A stretch of DNA of 64,000 nucleotides, taken from positions 2,108,001 through 2,172,000 of the forward strand of contig NW_027117338.1 of the NCBI RefSeq assembly GCF_038025025.1. Reading direction: 5' to 3'. The notes beneath the pieces are model-generated. The model made no database searches. It had not been told where the DNA came from and worked only from the letters and a program-made list of their open reading frames with translations. The translations under genes and the position numbers were made by a program. This DNA is from Phyllosticta citribraziliensis. Taxonomy: Eukaryota. Below, one piece after another: positions 2,116 to 19,985 of this stretch. Positions within the stretch are counted from its first letter, which is position 1, and each line of letters starts with the position of its first letter.

Positions 2116-3656
2116 CTAATACGTCCTGGACAGGTTGCGGAGGTACCAGTCTACGAGCCTGCGGCCAACCTTGGCCTCCGACACATGGATGAGGTCCTAC
2201 CAAAATTAGCATTTTGCCGAGCTTTTTTCATGTAGCGAAACTTACACCCTCCATGGCATAGTCCAAGTCGCTGCTGTTGACGACATCGCCGTCAAGCAGG
2301 CCACCTTCGCTCCACCTGACCTGCCTGCTCCTTTGCTTGTTGACCAGCAGCCAGCACCGCAGCTTCTCTGGCTCAACGTCCAAAAAGCCGGCGAGTTTCT
2401 TAAGATCCATGGTCGTGTAGAGCTTGAGGTAGCTCTTGACTGTGGGGGACCACATGTTGTTCTTGACCTCCTCCATGAAAATGCGGCAGTGGTGGTCGAT
2501 GGGGTCGACGTTGACCTCTGGGTTGTCAAAGTCGGGCGGCGTGGGCGAGATGAACTTGGGGCAAGCCTGGCGGAAGAGCTCCTCAAAGAGAGGGAGCGCC
2601 TCGGGACCGCCGCGCTGGAGGCGGTTGAACTGCTCGCCGTACTTCTCGCGCAGAGCAGTGTGGATCGTGTCATCGAGCCTCGTGGGGTGGAACGCGACGC
2701 AAATGGCAATGAGCGCATACATCTGGTCGTTCTTCTTGGTGATCGAGTCGTACTGCGCGTTCTTCTGGAAGTTCTTGGTCCTCGAGACGTAGACGAGGAT
2801 GTGGCTGAACATGCGAATGGCATCGGCGTAGCGGCGCATCATCATGTAGGAGAATCCGACATAGTAGTAGGTCGTAAAGTGGGCAGCCATGACGCGCGCG
2901 AACATGGCCTTCTTGTTGAGCTCAATGTCGTCCAGGGTCTTCAAAGCCAGGCTAAAGTCTCCGAGCAGACAGTGGACGCGGAGGAGACCAATGATGGAAA
3001 AGTAGCCAAGCATCTTGTAAAGAGGACGGTTGCCGTACTCGCCAGCGTACAGAGCCGGGTCCTCGCCGCGCTTCATGGCGGCAAGCTGCTCGCTGATCTG
3101 AGACCGCTGGATCAGCGAGTACAGGACGTTGAGCACGCTGTAGCAGCCCCACGTGTTGGGGTTCTCCCGGAGCAGCTGAATCTCATCCCCATTGTCTCCC
3201 TTGAGCGCGACCCTTTGTCTGTAGCTGCAGAAGCTGTTGAATTGGTAGATGAACTCGTCAATCACGTCCCAGGCCCAGTAGTACTGCATGTCGAGTCAGC
3301 TCCAGTGGCTTGCGGCCATTGATCCAAGCGCTGCTTACGTTGGGAACCTCGAGGTCCACGGGGCCGTCCGAGTTCAAGATGTAGTGGAAGAGGCTGCAGT
3401 AGTTGTCGTAGCTGGCGAACTTGGTCTCGAGCGTAGCCTGGTACTCGAGGGGCGTCGCGGCGGCGGCAAGCTGCGCGTGGATGTCCTGTCCACCCATTGA
3501 AGATACGCGGTCAAGGCCCTCCATGCCGTCGTCGTACTGGACCTGCTCTTTGTAGTCGTTGGCGAGCGCCTCCTCCTCGACGTCCGAGTCATCGTCGTGG
3601 ACCCGGACGGGGGCGTCCCCTTGTTGTTGGGGCGGAACAGCCTGGCGCAAGCTCAT
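2116..3656 (-). CDS. eIF3L: Eukaryotic translation initiation factor 3 subunit L (Paf67 domain); introns 3284-3338 and 2197-2245
   Basis: Typical eIF3L motifs YWAWDVIDEFIYQF, LGYFSIIGLLRVHCLLGDF and ACPKFISP. The last exon reads DLIHVSEAKVGRRLVDWYLRNLSRTY*. Both introns are GT-AG. Confidence 0.95.
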
Positions 3657-3926
3657 CTTGGGCGTGTTGGTCGAAGGGAGGGAGGTGGGTGAGATGGGCC
3701 GGTGCGAGGTGGAGCGTGGGTGTTGGCGGCAACGCGTCTCGGCGAGGTGATGAATTTCCGCTTTTTCGCTTGCGGTGCGGATGCGGAAGACTGCTCTATC
3801 GATAAGATCCGGCGGGGAGACCTTACCATTATTTGAAGCACCCCGCGCCCATGACTACTGCGGCCATTTGCATTCGTGAAAAGTCTTTGTTCTCTGCTCT
3901 GCAGTATCTGCTGCGCTCGCTTCACC

Positions 3927-4967
3927 ATGGCCTCCACGTTCAAAGTCGCCGTGATTCAGCTTCATCCCAAGGTCTGCAACGTGATCCCAAGCCCCGTCAT
4001 AGCTCAACCCCACTTATGCCACATTATAGCCCTTCCAAATTGAACAAAACTTCAATAAAGCCGCTGGATTTGTGAAAGCGGCGGCTGCGCAAGGTGCCAA
4101 GCTGGCCGTCTTGCCCGAGTACCACTTGACCAATTGGATCCCAAAAGACGAGAAATTTCTCCCCCTCTGCGACCAGTGGGAGACGTATCTCAAAAAGTAC
4201 CAAGCCCTGGCAAAAGAGTTTGGGATTTGCATCGTACCAGGGACGATTGTGGAGAGGCATCGAGACGCTGTAAAAGAAGAAGACAAGCTCCTGAACGTAG
4301 CTTACTTCATTGACCACCGCGGTGAAATTTTGGGGAAATATGTCAAGAAGAATCTTTGGGGGCCCGAACGCGAACACCTGACCTCTTCTGGTCGAGACGT
4401 GCATGATGTGTTTGATACACCACTCGGCAGAGTTGGCATGCTCGTCTGCTGGGATCTCGCGTTTCCAGAGGCAAGTATTTGACTCCATCGTATTCGGATT
4501 ACTCTAACTATTCCAGGCATTCCGTGAACTCATTTCTCAAGGAGCCAAAATCATCATCATCCCGTGTTTCTGTCAGTCTTGACTAAGGCTTCTCTTTGGA
4601 AACGAAAGCTTACACAGCCCCAGGGACCCTGTATGATTGCTCGCCAGCTGGTCTTGCGCGCAATCCCTCTTCAGAATCCCTCTTTTTGGACTCGACTCTC
4701 ACTTCACGCGCCTTTGAGAACACCTGCGCAATCATTTTTGCGAACGCCGGAGGTCCTCCCGGCAAGGGGTACGCGGGCGTCTCGCAAGTTACCGTACCCT
4801 ATGTGGGGCCAATTGCGCGGTTGGGAAGTGCAGCAGAGGGCATGTGCGTTGTTGATCTGGACATGTCCATCGTCGAGGATGCAGAGCAAAATTACAGGAT
4901 TCGTGAGGATCTGGCAAGGCATGATTGGCATTATGATTACAGGCATAGTGCAAAAGAAAAGCTGTGA
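3927..4967 (+). CDS. Carbon-nitrogen hydrolase (nitrilase superfamily); introns 3972-4029, 4471-4516 (GC-AG), 4572-4623
   Basis: The Glu-Lys-Cys catalytic triad is present: VLPEY, YVKKNLW and VCWDLAFPE. The N-terminus reads MASTFKVAVIQL. Splicing restores one continuous frame. Confidence 0.92.
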
Positions 4968-5065
4968 GCATACTCAATCGAGGGCTCTGTTCATCGATGG
5001 ATTCTAGACAATCAAGTCAAAGGAGTTGCAAGCCTCTTTTGAATCTTTGATCCGCACCACACCAA

Positions 5066-5283
5066 CACAGTGGGTGTCGAAAGAAATGCGACAGACCTCC
5101 TGGCAATATGAGTGCACTTAGGGAGCATTCATCTGCTGCTATAGTCGCGCCCAAGGAGCATTCATCTACTATTATAGTCACGCTTAGGGAGCATTCATTT
5201 ACTGCTATAGTTGTGCTTAGGAAGCATTCATGTGCTGCCACAGTTAGACCTAGGGTGTCTCATTTCTTTCTTCACCCACTGTG
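5066..5283. mobile_element. Non-autonomous DNA transposon (MITE), copy 1, 218 bp, CACAGTG...CACTGTG ends, 4-bp TSD CCAA
   Basis: Left end CACAGTGGGTGTCGAAAGAAATGCGACA; reverse complement of right end CACAGTGGGTGAAGAAAGAAATGAGACA. CCAA lies at both 5062-5065 and 5284-5287. A homologous copy is at 9215-9420. Confidence 0.88.
5117..5248 (+). repeat. 4 x 33-bp tandem repeat inside the MITE (consensus ~CTTAGGGAGCATTCATCTGCTGCTATAGTCGCG)
   Basis: Units start at 5117, 5150, 5183 and 5216. Differences between units are mostly C/T and G/A transitions. Confidence 0.9.
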
Positions 5284-5879
5284 CCAACATAATGGAGATG
5301 ACAAACGTACCAGTGCCAAAGCGACGCTCTGAATGTCTTCCGGGAGTGACGGCCAGCTTGTGAGGAATAGAAAGTTAGGATGGAAACGCTATGGACAGTA
5401 AAAGACGTGGGGCCCAATGCACAGTTTGTGTTTACAAAAATCGCCATTCAGAGATGGGAAGACGCTTCTAATGGCGGCGTAAAGAAAGCAACTCTGGGAT
5501 ACTTGTGAATTAAACATTCTTGGAGGCTCGTGAGTGCCTCCAGCAACAGGACGCCATGCCTGGTCAACGAGGAGCATCCCCGAGATTCAAAGGATCTGTG
5601 GGTCCAAAATCTGTTGTCAGAACCAAAACTCCCAGGTGCACTGAGAATCTCTCCCGGTCCCCGCCTCGAATAACTTGTCGATGTTTGGGCTCTGGCTCAG
5701 CTTCTCTGCTGTGTCCCCCGCGGTCACTAGAATCGTACATTGAAAAACGTACCATGGTGCCTCTTATTTACAGTCTCCCACCTAACCCCGTGTGATAGCC
5801 TTTGTTTTTGTCCCAAATGGCAGCCCAGCCATGAATCTATGTCGCTGATATCCAATTCGAATGCGAGACGAAACCCATC

Positions 5880-6771
5880 TTACAAAGCACCCAACTCCTT
5901 CAGCTTGGCAACCATGCCATCGACGTCCTCGACCTTCTGGCCACCCTGTCTGGTAGGGGGCTCGGTGACCTTGACCGTCTTCAACCGCTGCTTCAGGTCG
6001 ATGCCGTAGTCGTCCAGCGCCTTCTTGACCAACGGCTTCTTCTTCGCCTTCATGATGTTGGGCAGACTGGCGTACCGCGGCTCGTTCAATCGCAGGTCCG
6101 TCGTGATGACCATGGGCAGCTTAGCCTTGACCGTGTCGACACCGCCGTCAACCTCCTTGGTGACCGTCACAGTGTCGTCCTTGATCTCGATCTTGGACGC
6201 CTGCGTGGCCTGCGGCCAGCCCAGCAACCCCGCCAGCATCTGGCCCGTCTGGTTGGCGTCGTCGTCGATGCTCTGCTTGCCGAGGATGACGATGTTGGCC
6301 TTTTCCTGCTCGACCGTCTTTGCCAGGATCTTTGCTACGCCCAGCGGCTCCAGGTTGGCCGTGTCTGCCGCCTCGACGTGGATTCCGCGGTCGGCGCCCA
6401 TGGCCATGGCGGTACGCAGCACGTCTTGCGCCTTGGCCGGTCCCGCACTCCATGCAATGATCTCCTCGACCGGTTGGGCCTTGCGTTCGCGTAGGTGCAC
6501 TGCCTCTTCGACCGACAGCTCATCGAATGGGTTCATGCTGTGCTTGACACCAGCGGTCTCGATGCCAGTTCCGGCCTTGTTGATGCGCGGTTTGATCTAC
6601 AGAGCTAATGTTAATATCCAGTTACTTGAAGTATGAGCGTCCAAAGCCGAAGCCGATGTGAGACGGGTAGACGGCCGAAGCTAGAAGCCGGGAATGCTGT
6701 GTCGGAAAGGCGAGACGAACCGCATAGTCAATGACTCTCTTTACCGGAACCAGAATGCGGAGGTTGGACAT
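5880..6771 (-). CDS. ETFB: Electron transfer flavoprotein beta subunit (Cir1/ETFB); intron 6597-6720
   Basis: MSNLRILVPVKRVIDYA|IKPRINK..., SMNPFDELSVEEA, GKQSIDDDANQTGQMLA, DLRLNEPRYASLPNIMKAKKKP. Confidence 0.96.
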
Positions 6772-7237
6772 GGCGAATGTGGAGGTATACGGATGCCGAA
6801 TGCACGAGAATAGGTGTTCGAAGCGTTGAGAGGCACTGGGATATGAGGACGAGTCCCGCGAGGTTGGCTGGGCGGCGTTGTTGGAAAGTTGCAGTCGGAT
6901 CGTTCCCCGCGAACGAAGCTTGTGATGGATAGCCGAAGGCGGCCGAGCTCGGCCCCTCGCCTTGCGGTTGTCGGACCCAACAAGGTGCTCAGTGCTGTTC
7001 TGATTCTGTTCTTACTCTATTGAAGCTGCAAAACCCAACTCATACCAAACTGCAGAAGCTCATCGTCATGAATGCCTCGCTCCGATGAGCAGAGGCCGGT
7101 ATTACACTACACCCAAAAACAAGCCGACTCCATCATTCGAAGAATACAGGAAAAAAAGATCATCCTTGAAGAAATGCTCAGGGGAAACCCGCAATGCTCT
7201 AATCAGCCGAATCTCGCGCAACAACTCTTGATGCCCT

Positions 7238-8745
7238 CTACCAGTCACTCCAGCCATCCTCCTCCTTCTTCTGAGCTGCACCACCAGGTCCACCCTTCTT
7301 CATAGCTGCTGTGCCGACACTTGTTGGCTTTGGCTTGTTTGAGACATCACCAGCTGCGGCAAACTCGTCCCAGAAGCTCTTCTTGTCCGCGCTGGGTCCC
7401 TTGGGCGCTTCGCCGAACGAATCCCAAAAGTCTCTGCGCTCAGTGTCTGGTCCAGACTTTTTGGCGCCGGAGCCGCGGGGCGCTAACGTATCATCGCCCT
7501 CCACGAAGCGATTGAAGGTCTCTGCAGCATTTTTGGTGGTATGCTGAAAAGTCTGGCCAAGGTCGAGCGCTCTCTGACGAGCTTGCGCTGCGAGATCCGC
7601 TTCTGCTAGCTGTAATTTGGAGTAAATGAGCGCACATCCAGTCAAATGTTCTGCAAAGAACTCACCTTCTCCATGTTTGGCTTCACCCAGCCTTCATATC
7701 CTGTCATGGCAGTCTTTTGAACAGTCGTACTGAACCAGCCAAAGCCCTTGGTCAATGCACCCACTGGATCCTTTTGGAAATCGTCGATACCGGGAACACC
7801 TCCTTGTTGTTGTCTCTCTGGGAAGGGATCGCTGCCAAAGCCTGTGAATTTTCCACCCTGGTTTGGCGGCAGGCCATCGGGCCTGTTGGCGTTTTCCGCG
7901 CCGAGCTGCGCAAAGTATGTCTCGTTCTTTACCTTTGACGACATGGCGTTTGTGCCCAAGCTTGGTGATCCAGATCGCGCTGAGCCTGTTCCATCCACGC
8001 TTCTGTTCACTGGCGTGTGACTCCTGCTCCCGACTGCGCTACCTGGCAACCTCGATCCGCTTGTCTGTGGCTCATGCTTGGTCGGCTTCTTTTCGCTCTT
8101 GGGCTGCGGCACATATTCCTTGCCCTCAACTTTGGCGGTAAGCCTGTCCTTCCACTCTTCGCCAGCTTCGCTGTCATAGCGCTCGTTGATTGTAGAATCC
8201 TCAAAAGTGCGGCCCTCGAGCTCGTTCGAAGCGTGAGCATTGAAAAAGTCTTGCCAGGGTTTGTTGCCACCATTCTTCATGCGAGTAAGCTCGGCAGGCT
8301 TGAATGCGTCCATGGTGATGCTGCGGACGAAGGATATGTGTACGCCAAGGCCTCGATGAATGCCAGAGCATTGGAGGCACATGAAGATTCCAAATTTCGG
8401 AGAAGCCTGTGATCATAGGTCAGCACGACAAGTTATGTCGGGCATGCACTGCGAGACGCGGCGCCTGTTGCATGCGCGAAGCAAAGCCATGGGTTATGGA
8501 GTGGACGCGTACCCATTGTGGACTCGCGGCGTTGCAATCGACGCACTGATTATTGCCATTCGTCTTTTGGATCTCCAGGAGCTATAAGTATCGGCTGTAT
8601 CGTCAGCGACTGTTACTCCTCCGTTGGTCTCTCGCTATCGCGGTGCGCTCAACTAGCAGGAGCCGCCCTGTTCGCGGTGACACTATGACGGCATGGCGCT
8701 CACCTTACTCCTGGTCTCCGGATCAATCTCCCAAGATTTACTCAT
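7238..8745 (-). CDS. GCS1: ADP-ribosylation factor GTPase-activating protein (Gcs1/ArfGAP1), 4 exons
   Basis: MSKSWEIDPETRSK|LLEIQKTNGNNQCVDCNAASPQW|ASPKFGIFMCLQCSGIHRGLGVHISFVRSITMD gives the C4 zinc finger with the catalytic Arg. Also the ALPS-like LTKGFGWFS and the C-terminal GWSDW. Confidence 0.94.
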
Positions 8746-9214
8746 GATTGCGGCGCGGGCGTTTGTTCCGCAGGAGTCGATCTGGAGGGAGGCGGGCGAG
8801 CGAGACTGGAAGAGGTGTCGATTGGGCCAAGTCGGATGTCGCGTGTCGTTGACTTTCCGGGGATGAGGCTCTCACGGCTGAGAGTGGTCAGGGAATGATC
8901 TCGCGTCGAGGGATGTCCAGCGAGAGTGGCTCAAGCGGTGCGAGATGTCGAGGGGGGGGCAGCGCGGTGGATGCTGCAGCTGCTTGGACCGTGCTAAGGC
9001 CGGGGCGCCCAGAGGATATTCAGGCACGCCGACGACACTCCACTTCTCCATCACCGCTATGTCCACAAACCTGTTTCCACCCTCGACGAGCTCTTTTGGC
9101 TCCCACGCCACAGGCGGCTGCATTCCCAATAAACACAGATCTCACCGACAATGAACCGTTTCGCCTAAATCTCTCGTTTTGGATGATCGGAATCGACAAA
9201 CAGGGTGACTTGCT

Positions 9215-9420
9215 CACAGCGGGCGTGGAGAGAGATGAGACCTGGCAATATGAGTGCGTCTAGGGAGCATTCATTCTCTGTGCCGCTGCATTTGAGGAGC
9301 AGTCGTTGTTGACTACAGCTTTGCCTGAGGAACATTCAAATATGCACTGCTGCAGCTAGGGTTAGCAGTCTTTCATGGCAGACAGATCCAGGGAGTCTCA
9401 TTCTATCAACACCCATTGTG
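9215..9420. mobile_element. Same MITE family, degenerate copy 2, 206 bp, 4-bp TSD TGCT
   Basis: Starts CACAGCGGGCGTGG...CCTGGCAATATGAGTGC...TAGGGAGCATTCA, matching copy 1. Ends ...CAGGGAGTCTCATTCTATCAACACCCATTGTG. TGCT lies at both 9211-9214 and 9421-9424. Confidence 0.85.
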
Positions 9421-10484
9421 TGCTCTTCCACCTTCGATCTTGCATTGCTAAAAGGCAGTCGATAGTTGGACAAGGCGCCTTTAAGAAGCACTGCGCAGTG
9501 GCAAGCACGGTACAGTTCTGAATGTTTTAAAGCTGAGTCGAGATCACTCATAATCCATGTGGAATATCTGCACTAGGACCAAACAGAGGCTCGATCTGAG
9601 TTTGATAAAAGAGCATTGCAGGACAGTGGTCGATTAGCAGTGAAATGGCTGAGGAAAACTGCCAAGTTCTTCCAAGCCCCATTCAACACGGTTGAATCCA
9701 TCAACTCCACCTTTTCTCTCAAAGCCCGCCGTGTTGAGCAGGTTCAACATCGACTCTATGAGATTGGATCTACTGGTATCTTTAACTACGGTATCCAGCA
9801 CAGACTTGGAAACGACAGTGAAAGGCTCTGAACAACCAATCGCTTGTTTTTTCCAGATCAAACAACATGCCAAGGGTAGTCGGCGGTCGGAATTTTCGTC
9901 ACCTCCACGGTTATCGCCGGTAACGGCAGGTGCACTATCCAGCGTGCGCCTTGTAAACAACGAAGATCCTACGCCTTCTCTCCCGCTGCGGGACTGCGGA
10001 AGCCTAGTCTCGTTCCATCAATGTCACGTTGGTTGGATGTGGTGTTGGAGACAACGCTCATAGGACCGGTACAATTGCTTAGCACCAGTCAACTTCACTG
10101 AAACTTTGCACAATACATGTAAAGTCGAACCGGCGGCAAAACACGGTCCTACGCCCGCTGTAGGTCTCTGAAAGGATTCCGGGCCGCGACGCTCCAGTCG
10201 TTCAACGTGTAACAGATTACCATTTTGGGAAAGGCCAAAGATGCCTCCTCCTCCTACTAGAGAGGGGGTGTAGCTATACTATTTCCGCAGTAAATGTGTA
10301 CCGAGTTAAGCGCTAGAGTCGGAGAGGGGATTCCGGGAGCGTTTCTCCTGCGATGTCATGTCTTCTAGCCGGGAACTGGAGTATATAAGACCCTGCAGGC
10401 TCAGGCTTTGGCATTACTTCATAACAGCCATTTCCCCTTTGAAGATTCTTCCAGTATCGATCTCAAAAGACACAGCAAACAAAG

Positions 10485-11458
10485 ATGACGACCGAGACAG
10501 GCCGCAGCTATCACAACACCTCGTCGGTGTATTGTCTCCCCAATGAGTAACTATACCCACTTCATCCATCTAGAGCACAGCACAATCTGATTTCTTTGCC
10601 AGCACTGCCGAACAAGACCGCCTCGATATGCAGTCTTCAGCCATCAAGTCCACGCTTGAAGGCCGCGTCACTCTGGCGCCCCTACCTCCCAATCCATCCA
10701 AGATCCTCGACATAGGCTGCGGCACTGGGCACGCTTCTCTCGACATCGCCCGCCAGTACCCCTCGGCCCAAGTCTACGGGTTGGACATCACACCCGTGCC
10801 AGAAAGAGCCGTCTCGCAAGCGCCACCAAACCTGCACTTCCTCACGGGCAACATCTTCGACGTAGACCCCACAGCATTGGCCGGCACACATGAAGGGGGG
10901 GAGCCTTCCTCCCTCGCCACCGCACTCCAACCCTACACCTTCACGCACGTCTTCGCACGCATGATCTTCATGGGCATGAACGACTGGCCGGGCCTCATCT
11001 CGCGGGCCTGCTCACTCCTGGTGCCAGGCGGCTACCTCGAGCTGCAGGAGCTGGACTCCTGGTTCAGCGACGCGAGCGGCGCGCACATTGAGCCCCCCTT
11101 CGAGGAAGCCATAAGCACGGCGGTGCAGGAGCGCGGGATAGACTTCCGGGCCGGCTCGCATGCGGCCGAGAGGCTGCGCGCTGCTGGCTTCGTCGACGTC
11201 GAGGTGCACCGCCGTCCCTGGATCATCAAGGCGCTGCCTGGTGAGCCAGAGTCCGAGATGACGCGCTACGTCTCTCGTGCTATGCCGGCGATGGTGGAGG
11301 AGTTTCTCAGGAAACTTGTCTTGCCGCAGGCGGACCGCTGGGGTGGGGAGGATGTTGTGCAGCAGTGGTTGAGCGGTGCGAAGGATGGGGACATCTTTTC
11401 GATACCGGGCAGCCATGCCGACTACTTTGTTACGATTGGGAGGAAGCCGGAGTCGTAA
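10485..11458 (+). CDS. SAM-dependent methyltransferase, LaeA-like/TAM family; intron 10547-10602
   Basis: GRSYH...YCLPND|TAEQDRLD N-terminus typical of the family, SAM motif ILDIGCGTG, VYGLDI and LLVPGGYLELQE. TATATAA at ~10383. Confidence 0.9.
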
Positions 11459-16166: not shown

Positions 16167-17526
16167 ATGTGGAACGGCCTCTTCATGCTGCTCGGCCTAA
16201 GCATGATCATGGCCATCTCGTGCGTCAATCGGAGCGATGTGTCCCGCACTGGCTGATGTCTTGCTAGATCCTTTTTGGCTGGCTCTCTACCGCTCTCCTT
16301 CACCTTGTCGCAGCGCAATCTTCGCTTCATCTCGGCGTTCGGCAGCGGCGTGCTCATCGGCACAGCTCTGATTGTCATCATCCCCGAAGGCATCGAGACA
16401 TTGTATACTGCGCACTCTGATACCCACTCGCTCTCGACTCGACATATCCAATGGCACGGCGCAGGAGTTCCGCGGGCCATTGATACCCACTTGGATAACT
16501 TGAAAGGCGCAAAAAAGCTGGAGAGAAGGGAGGGTTGGATCCATGTGGATCGCAGCACAGAGAACCTCGCCGATATGACCCGACGCAACGCAGAGGCAGC
16601 TAGTCAGGACGAACAAGAGAAGGAGTCACCATCGCAAGAAGAGCATCACGAAGAGTCTCATGGTCACGAACCTCATGCGTGGGTGGGGATATCGCTAGTC
16701 CTTGGCTTCATCCTCATGTACCTCATCGACGCACTGCCCTCAGTCTTCGCCTCGACGCCTTCTCGTCCGCTGCACATCTCGCTGTCCAATCTCTCCAGCG
16801 GCCTCCATCACTCGCCCTCGCACTCGCCAGCGCTCTACCCCGCTGACGCGCCGCCAACGCCTTCCTCCAACCCTCCAGCTACAACCATTGGCCTCGTCAT
16901 CCACGCGGCCGCCGACGGCATTGCGCTCGGCGCCTCGTCCAGCACGTCGAGCGCAAAGCTCGGCATCATCGTCTTCATCGCCATCATGGTGCACAAGGCG
17001 CCGGCGGCCTTTGGCCTGACGTCGGTGCTGCTGAAGCAGGGCCTCAGCAAGCGGACGGCCCGCGGTCACTTGCTCGTCTTCAGCCTCGCCGCTCCCGTCG
17101 GCGCCCTCGCTACCTGGATCGCCGTCAACATGCTTGGCCGCGAGACGCTGGGTGGCGAGGAGGGCATGCAGTTCGCGACGGGTTGCGTGCTACTGTTTTC
17201 TGGCGGAACTTTCCTGTAAGCTGAGCCTTTCTCCCGTTTCACGCAACCAACCAACTGTACAACCACTGTTACTAACACCCGCTGCTTTGCCTCACAGCTA
17301 CGTCGCCATGCACAGCATGCAAGAAGCCGCCGGCAGCCCCGGCGCCCACGGAGCGCACTCGCCACACCGCTCGCCCCTGTCTAATGGATACGGCGGCGGC
17401 AACGGAGGGCTCCTCGACAGCGGCGACGCCAGACCGGCAGGCGGCATCAGCGGGTCCGACGTCGCCGTGCAAGCAATAGGCATGCTTGTGCCGCTGTTGG
17501 CGCAGATTGGGCACGGGGGTCACTGA
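16167..17526 (+). CDS. ZIP-family metal transporter, Atx2/ZIP9-like (3 exons)
   Basis: GVLIGTALIVIIPEG, TTIGLVIHAAADGIALG, AIMVHKAPAAFGL, LFSGGTFL|YVAMH, with His-rich loops. Confidence 0.9.
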
Positions 17527-18333: not shown

Positions 18334-19985
18334 TTAAGCCGTCAATGCGCTGCTGATGCCCAAGATGCCCATGCCGACAAACGCAAACACCATGCACAGG
18401 TTACGGCTGTGCGTCAGGTCCATGGCCTCCTGGAAAAGAGTGAGTGCAACACTAGCCATGATGCCCGCCGTGACGGCAAACATGCCGCCATAAACGGCCT
18501 CGCCAGGCTCGCCAATGCCTGCGTGGCCGGCAATTTTGAACCAAAGGGCGGCGACGCCGGCACCGACGGGCTGGCTGGCGCCGCCCAGCAGCGTCGAGAT
18601 GACCATGGCTTTCCATCGCGAGTTCATGGCCAGGTACAGCGGCAGGGCCAACGCAAAACCCTCGGTGATGTTGTGGATGAAGAGCGCCAGGAACACGGAA
18701 AAGCCCAGTTGCGGGTTCGCGTGGTTAGTCGCGTACGTGATGAAGCCTTCTGGGAGCTTGTGGAGAGCGATGGCGATGGAGGTTTGGAGGCCGATGGAGA
18801 GAAAAGCGTTGGTGGGGACGTGGTGGTGGTGGTGGGCCATGGCGTCTGGGTCGTCGTCCGTGTGAGCATGGTGGTCGTGGTCTTGGTGAGCATGTGGCTG
18901 TGGCGACCTCGAGCGGCTGTCGCGGCTGCTATTTGTGTTGTAGTAAGAGGGATTGCTCGAAAGTGTGCTGTAGTCTATAGTGTGCGGTTCCGAGTGCACC
19001 TGTGTCAGGGGTGTCGTCTCGTCTGTTGGCTGTCGACGCATCGAGTTGTGGAATGATGCCGTCGCCTGGCGAAGTAGCGTGCCTGATCTCGACAAGGTTC
19101 CATAGGCCGATCTTGTACCCCCTCTTGCTTGCACAATCTTGAAGCAATCAACGCCGCATGGGTCGGTGTAGCCATGGCAGGGTCCGCCCTCGTCACACTT
19201 CTTCAGCAGGTACTGAGACGCCTTGTGGGCGAGTTGCATAGGGAGTGATGGTCTTCGAGAAAGTTTGGATGATTTTGGTGGCCGGAGAGAGTCCTGGCTG
19301 GTAAACATTTCACTGTGCATCGAGGCATCCAGACTGACAGGGCCACTGTTGGGGATAGATACGTCGTGAGGTCGTGAATGAGCGTCTTCATGCTCTTCGT
19401 GATGATGGGGCTTATCGTCATCGGCGTCTTCTTTCGGGGCTTCTTCGTCGTGGCTGTGGTCGCAGTCGACGACGTGGGATGGGATGAACTGATGCATGAT
19501 GCGCGAGAGAATCTGGATGCCTATCACACCTCCGAGAAAACAGGCGATGAGAATCCACGCCGCAGATTTCGGTGAGTGACCGCCTTTTTGCAGCGAACTC
19601 TTCGCAGAAGGCAGCATGCTAGATAGCGATGAGAAGAGCTATCACGATTGTGAGTTGTGATGTCATTGGAAAATTCGGATGGCGGGGTGTTTCTCACCAT
19701 GACACCGAAGCTCAGACTTAGGGAGCAGGACAAAAAGGCATTGCTGTCCTGGATCTTGAAGTTTCTTTTGCCGGGTAACAGGCGAATAACGATGTCGACG
19801 CATATTATCGAAGCTGTACGACTCAGTACCGCGCGGCAGAATGTTGGACGCGGGAGACTAACCTCCAAGTGTGCATGCTATTAATGGCAGACGTTAGACA
19901 GGGACGTGGAGCAGACGCGGGAAGCCGTACCGACACCGCTCATGGCGGTCATGATCCACCCCCTAGTATCATTGTCCAACACCAT
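18334..19985 (-). CDS. ZIP-family zinc transporter, Zrt3/ZrfF-like (vacuolar efflux type); includes a 15-nt micro-exon at 19863-19877
   Basis: HHHHHVPTNAFLSIGLQTSIAIALHKLPEGFITY, ALFIHNITEGFALALP, SLSLSFGVM. The 5' exons were reconstructed with GT-AG sites. Confidence 0.9.

Follow-up and report, generated by a model that had tools for sequence, protein, structure and literature searches.

Chapaev transposons have been described mainly from animals. In CACTA transposons, the subterminal repeats bind the transposon protein, and in mimp elements a TA duplication lies directly at CAGTGGG. The hallmark of Chapaev, as given in PMC4079192, is a target-site duplication (TSD) of 3-4 bp together with invariable 5'-CAC...GTG-3' termini. 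Chapaev is grouped with CACTA/EnSpm, Mirage, Transib and their allies in the CMCT clade, which PMC12730594 characterizes by CA..TG termini and TSDs of 2-5 bp. For Ginger, PMC10741241 gives 5'-TG...CA-3' termini, inverted ends of 40-270 bp and TSDs of 4-6 bp. According to the fungal survey in PMC5751038, the fungal entries of the CMC group (CACTA/EnSpm-Mirage-Chapaev) in Repbase come only from Basidiomycota and Mucorales, yet a 'broader distribution' was observed there; this record counts against a CMC reading of the family described below. CACTA/EnSpm is listed in PMC4522978 for the dothideomycete Mycosphaerella graminicola.

In this study, we analyzed a MITE family in a fungal DNA stretch of 64,000 nucleotides (the 64-kb window, meaning the whole stretch that was analyzed). 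The papers listed in full-text literature searches contained no description of a CACAGTG-ended fungal transposon or of a Phyllosticta MITE. A search of the same kind of literature for CACAGTGGG combined with inverted repeats returned only papers on the recombination signal sequence (RSS) of V(D)J recombination.

Results

Two copies in the window

The better preserved of the two copies, copy A, comprises the following features:

5062..5065, no strand: left TSD of copy A, 4 bp, CCAA; absent together with the element from one contig of run X2 (record 17)
5066..5283, no strand: copy A, a non-coding MITE of 218 bp with the ends CACAGTG...CACTGTG
5066..5093, plus strand: left terminal inverted repeat (TIR) of copy A, 28 nt, forming an inverted-repeat pair with 5256..5283 and aligned to the family consensus
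5117..5238, plus strand: internal tandem array of copy A, 3.7 units of 33 bp, core GGAGCATTCAT
5256..5283, minus strand: right TIR of copy A, 28 nt, forming an inverted-repeat pair with 5066..5093
5284..5287, no strand: right TSD of copy A, 4 bp, CCAA

The preliminary description of this DNA had claimed inverted ends of about 28 nt, CCAA on both sides and four 33-bp internal repeats, and this structure was confirmed. The TIRs lie 162 nt apart, are 89% complementary (25 of 28 positions paired) and both start with CACAGTGGGTG. With at most one mismatch, this 11-mer occurs in the 64-kb window only at the two ends of copy A and at the right end of copy B (9410-9420). Tandem Repeats Finder assigned the array at 5117-5238 a period of 33, 3.7 copies and 78% matches; the core, whose reverse complement is GAATGCTCC, occurs four times, once with 1 mismatch. 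By analytic estimate, 3.7e-5 inverted repeats of this quality are expected in a 64-kb window; demanding a 4-bp flanking repeat as well lowers the figure to 1.4e-7. In single-stranded form, the DNA of copy A is predicted to fold through its ends (-38.7 kcal/mol, z -4.25). An Rfam search of positions 4500-10000 gave no match.

A BLAST search of copy A against the window detected copy B and thus brought the family to two copies in the window. Its features are as follows:

9211..9214, no strand: left TSD of copy B, TGCT
9215..9420, no strand: copy B, an older, decayed MITE of 206 bp with the ends CACAGCG...CATTGTG
9421..9424, no strand: right TSD of copy B, TGCT

Copy B runs from CACAGCGGGCG to CACCCATTGTG, and its interior holds about three degenerate units of 32-33 bp. 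Its ends align to the family end consensus and are visible in alignments only; the inverted-repeat search missed them on account of their advanced decay and of an indel between them. Next to the left end, on its inner side, the two copies have in common an exact 17-nt subterminal block, CCTGGCAATATGAGTGC (5098-5114 in copy A, 9240-9256 in copy B), outside which they are about 78% alike. This block may be a candidate second protein-binding site.

Copy A lies between a PAF67/eIF3L ORF (3261-3854, minus strand) and an electron-transfer-flavoprotein ORF (5883-6596, minus strand), and copy B between an ArfGAP ORF (7645-8412, minus strand) and a methyltransferase ORF (10574-11455, plus strand). Both copies are therefore situated in gene spacers of a gene-dense region. 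The dihydroxy-acid dehydratase encoded in the window is 99% identical to a protein named from Phyllosticta citrichinensis and 96% identical to one from P. capitalensis. The window is therefore from a Phyllosticta-like dothideomycete, and the ascomycete host assumed in the preliminary description is correct. Elsewhere in the window, ZIP zinc-transporter domains are encoded by two adjoining ORFs of opposite strand (16257-17216, plus; 18337-19638, minus).

Dispersed copies and an empty site

Logan contigs of four public runs (X1, X2, X3 and X10) were compared with positions 3500-10500 of the window. In each of the four runs, the summed contig depth over 4904-5371 was far higher than in the bins around it; two bins of this interval reached 3025 and 1576 in X10 against 41-354 elsewhere, values that are not to be read as a copy number. 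Likeness to the window started exactly at 5066 in at least 10 contigs of X1, at least 33 of X10, at least 7 of X2 and at least 6 of X3. Among the contigs listed for the four runs, the start was at 5066 in 56 and at 5068 in 3. The flanks of the contigs starting at 5066 were mutually unlike (consensus agreement 0.37-0.52). At the right end, at least 6 contigs of X10 ended at 5283 and at least 7 at 5284.

In one contig of X1 (record 4), a copy that shows 4 differences in 196 nt is followed by 322 letters that were not placed on the window. It reads as a near-identical copy (~98%) at another locus, and the family has therefore been mobile recently. The X1 contigs otherwise equal the window (0 differences in at least 7 pieces) and may be its own source, so that they do not count as independent support. 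In X10, family members show joints within 5103-5245 at which 45-79 nt of the tandem array are skipped or repeated, so that copies differ in how many 33-bp units they hold.

The preliminary description had pointed to the empty site in a related strain as a check on the insertion, and such a site was found in X2. Record 17 of this run, 1856 nt long, matches the flanking sequence of the window at about 94% identity. It covers 3505-5061 and 5284-5606, which meet at its adjacent positions 326 and 325, and so joins 5061 to 5284. Exactly 222 nt are missing from it, i.e., the 218 bp of copy A plus one 4-bp CCAA. A second contig of X2 (record 21) covers 9250-9493, so copy B is present at the same site in the X2 organism and is therefore older. 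The insertion of copy A postdates the split from the X2 organism, and the older copy B is common to both. The identification of copy A as a MITE was likewise sustained by the TIRs, the TSD and the precise empty site, and by an element that is small, non-coding and multicopy. Copy A is almost certainly a real and recently mobile member of a MITE family that makes 4-bp duplications.

Related elements in metagenome contigs

Metagenome contigs were scanned with a loose end pattern, which matched at 38 loci against about 30 expected by chance (a rough estimate). In a BLAST comparison of these 38 loci with copies A and B, matches did not exceed 31 nt. Three of them (L010, L013 and L018) were inspected, and a real element was found in L018 only. 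It is a related element of 225 bp (L018:1155-1379) in a fungal metagenome contig, with 26-nt ends that are 77% complementary and with GCTG on both flanks; the neighboring ORF encodes a fungal rhodopsin-domain protein (PF20684). The forward GCATTCAT core of the tandem units is absent from this element, but a single inverted copy of the core lies close to the right end. Ends and cargo thus seem to evolve separately in this family.

At L013:1678-1703, the sequence CACAGCAGGTGACGATAGAAATGAGA is close to the end consensus. No partner end was found within this 2949-nt contig, and the locus, which may represent a solo end or else a copy that has been truncated, was left out of the TSD count. L010 was rejected as a chance match in coding sequence, and the remaining 35 loci were set aside as chance matches. 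The strict end pattern gave 0 matches in the metagenome contigs, and the end-pattern scan of prokaryote genome contigs also gave 0. The single match in viral contigs did not extend past the pattern and was dismissed as chance.

Ends of the family

Seven termini were aligned, and the resulting end consensus of about 27 nt is CACAGTGGGTGTCGATAGAAATGAGAC. Invariant in all seven are CACA (positions 1-4), G9, G11, AGA (17-19), TG (22-23) and GA (25-26). The contigs of the public runs include the end variants CACAGTGGGCG and CACAGTAGGTG. The first seven positions read CACAGTG twice, CACAGCG twice, and CACAATG (the right end of copy B), CACAGTA and CACAGCA once each. Both instances of CACAGTG belong to copy A; the exact RSS heptamer therefore characterizes copy A rather than the family as a whole.

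The preliminary description had noted that no RSS nonamer is visible at 12/23 spacing, and this was the case at the left end of copy A, where a 12-nt spacer is followed by AATGCGACA and a 23-nt spacer by CCTCCTGGC, neither of them an A-rich nonamer. The likeness of the family to a recombination signal looks superficial, consisting of a CAC start and a variable heptamer. It should not be over-read, as only CACA is conserved across the family in this motif.

Length of the target-site duplication

The claim of a 4-bp TSD held for every element with both flanks readable, with CCAA in copy A, TGCT in copy B and GCTG in the L018 element (3/3). No length above 1 other than 4 fits all three. The direct repeat of copy A has two longer readings, CCAAC and CCAACA, since the first two bases of the element happen to recur past the right CCAA; symmetric ends of copy A are compatible only with a 4-bp TSD. 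The empty site gives no help on the register, since its length does not depend on which one is chosen.

The base just past the right TSD is C in each of the three elements (5288, 9425 and L018:1384), the same as the first base of the element (p ~0.02 by base composition). The right flanks past the TSD read CAT, CTT and CAT, and there is no mirror-image preference on the left. The recurrent C could be due to chance, to a target preference or to a slightly asymmetric cut.

Discussion

Because the 218-bp element is non-coding, the family must depend on a transposase supplied in trans, and its insertion duplicates 4 bp of target DNA. This enzyme would recognize the TIRs of about 27 nt; more likely than not it belongs to the CMC group and is Chapaev-like. 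The 33-bp repeats and the 17-nt subterminal block are putative extra binding sites, or equally mere cargo. The fit to the Chapaev/CMC hallmark put forward in the preliminary description persisted when more ends were included, with CAC in 7 of 7 termini and 4 bp in 3 of 3 elements. Judging by the CAC...GTG termini and the 4-bp TSD, both read from sequence, we lean toward a CMC-group, Chapaev-like enzyme as the one that mobilizes the family. Overall, for this multicopy family of cut-and-paste MITEs in a Phyllosticta-like dothideomycete, a Chapaev-like CMC partner appears reasonably probable. Among the 102 ORFs of at least 150 aa in the window, 53 were scanned and gave no Pfam match to a transposase, all matches being to housekeeping families. 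The scans of metagenome, prokaryote genome and viral contigs returned no long element with the ends of the family.

Another superfamily with 4-bp TSDs, such as Sola, Academ or an undescribed group, may instead move the MITE, in which case CAC...GTG would be coincidental. Sola, a group with a DDD transposase, combines a 4-bp TSD, the length seen here, with very variable termini in the account of PMC10741241; termini are thus no discriminator, and structure alone cannot separate it from the present family. The survey in PMC5751038 records Academ from most fungal taxa, with a low copy number, and gives single occurrences of Sola1 in Dikarya, and the 53 scanned ORFs hold no transposase to decide the matter. 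However, Sola is rare in Dikarya according to that survey, and seven termini out of seven that start with CACA, together with a 4-bp TSD, match a group in which CAC...GTG is an invariable hallmark, which argues against Sola and Academ. We regard such a superfamily as an unlikely source of the mobilizing enzyme.

The preliminary description had stressed the RSS and Transib, an emphasis that our results do not support. If a Transib/RAG1-like transposase moved the family, its ends and the V(D)J RSS would be genuinely related. CACAGTG stands at both ends of copy A, and the right end of copy B, CACAATG, equals the Transib consensus heptamer given in PMC1131882. Transib also falls in the same CMCT clade as Chapaev (PMC12730594), and RAG-mediated transposition sometimes yields 4-bp TSDs, as stated in PMC1131882. 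However, CACAGTG was found at only 2 of 7 termini and positions 5-7 of the heptamer vary within the family; an A-rich nonamer is lacking behind both a 12-nt and a 23-nt spacer, and a 5-bp TSD with symmetric ends occurs in none of the three elements. For fungi, PMC1131882 names Transib from soybean rust only, and the genome survey in PMC5751038 scored it as absent. An enzyme of this kind is thus very improbable here.

The ends of the family contain CAGTGGG from position 3, and this motif resembles the start of the impala/mimp ends of Fusarium. The element might accordingly be a mimp-like Tc1/mariner MITE that starts at CAGTGGG and whose TA duplication has mutated; Tc1/mariner is the commonest superfamily of DNA transposons in fungi in the survey of PMC5751038. 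However, CA precedes CAGYRGG in all seven termini and is therefore part of the element, and a TA flank is found in 0 of 3 elements. The empty site lacks 222 nt (218 + 4) rather than 216 (214 + 2), and the contigs listed favor a start at 5066 over 5068 (56 against 3). The flanks and the empty site refute a TA duplication directly before CAGTGGG for copy A, copy B and the L018 element, and a mimp-like origin of the family is extremely improbable. That no transposon is involved, only a chance inverted repeat around a local minisatellite, is a negligible prospect: the window holds only two copies, but 3.7e-5 such inverted repeats are expected per window, sharp-ended dispersed copies occur in four runs with a precise empty site in a relative, and a third element in an unrelated metagenome contig has its own 4-bp TSD.

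The partner enzyme of the family could belong to an uncatalogued and still active lineage of the CMCT clade in Phyllosticta and other Pezizomycotina, with the family as its footprint. We propose this tentatively and consider it possible rather than probable. Such a lineage would be Chapaev-like or stand between Chapaev and Transib, with CACAG ends and 4-bp TSDs, a placement that we offer with equal reserve. Its boldest sub-case, a true Transib/RAG-like enzyme, would be a great surprise.

The family attests to recent cut-and-paste transposition in a fungal genus to which pathogens of citrus belong. Copies A and B are located in spacers next to housekeeping genes, where such insertions could alter gene regulation, and the insertions provide simple presence/absence markers between close species. 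A Chapaev-like partner enzyme, if present, would extend a mostly animal group into the Dothideomycetes and would provide the clade ancestral to RAG1 with a fungal branch.

In comparison with named systems, the family resembles the mimp/impala elements of Fusarium in that its members are fungal MITEs, measure about 200 bp and contain CAGTGGG in their ends, which are about 27 nt long. It differs from mimp in that CA precedes CAGTGGG as the start of the element and in that its TSD is 4 bp long with no fixed sequence. The likeness to Transib and the RSS lies in CACAGTG or CACAATG at 3 of 7 termini and in the CA..TG ends that PMC12730594 gives for the CMCT clade. In contrast, Transib as described in PMC1131882 has a 5-bp TSD and a 38-bp end made up of the heptamer CACAATG, a 23-bp spacer and an A-rich nonamer, whereas the present family has a 4-bp TSD, no nonamer and no conservation of heptamer positions 5-7. 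Ginger was rejected on account of the CA...TG termini and the ends of 26-28 nt. Plant EnSpm/CACTA elements are similar in their short inverted ends starting with CAC and in the repeated motifs inside these ends. Their termini are CACTA or CACTG and their TSD is 3 bp in the account of PMC10741241, unlike the CACAG and 4 bp seen here; a strict EnSpm/CACTA assignment was rejected on the basis of CACAG/CACAA termini with a 4-bp TSD. Chapaev3, for which PMC4079192 gives the TSD as TWA, differs from the family with its CCAA, TGCT and GCTG. Compared with Chapaev, the host is a dothideomycete fungus, the Phyllosticta family has a 33-bp internal tandem array, and the 53 ORFs scanned include no Chapaev-type transposase, so that membership is putative. 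The likeness to Chapaev is found in the ends and the TSD: CAC...GTG termini with a TSD of 3-4 bp in PMC4079192, and CAC at all seven termini with 4 bp in all three elements in the family described here.
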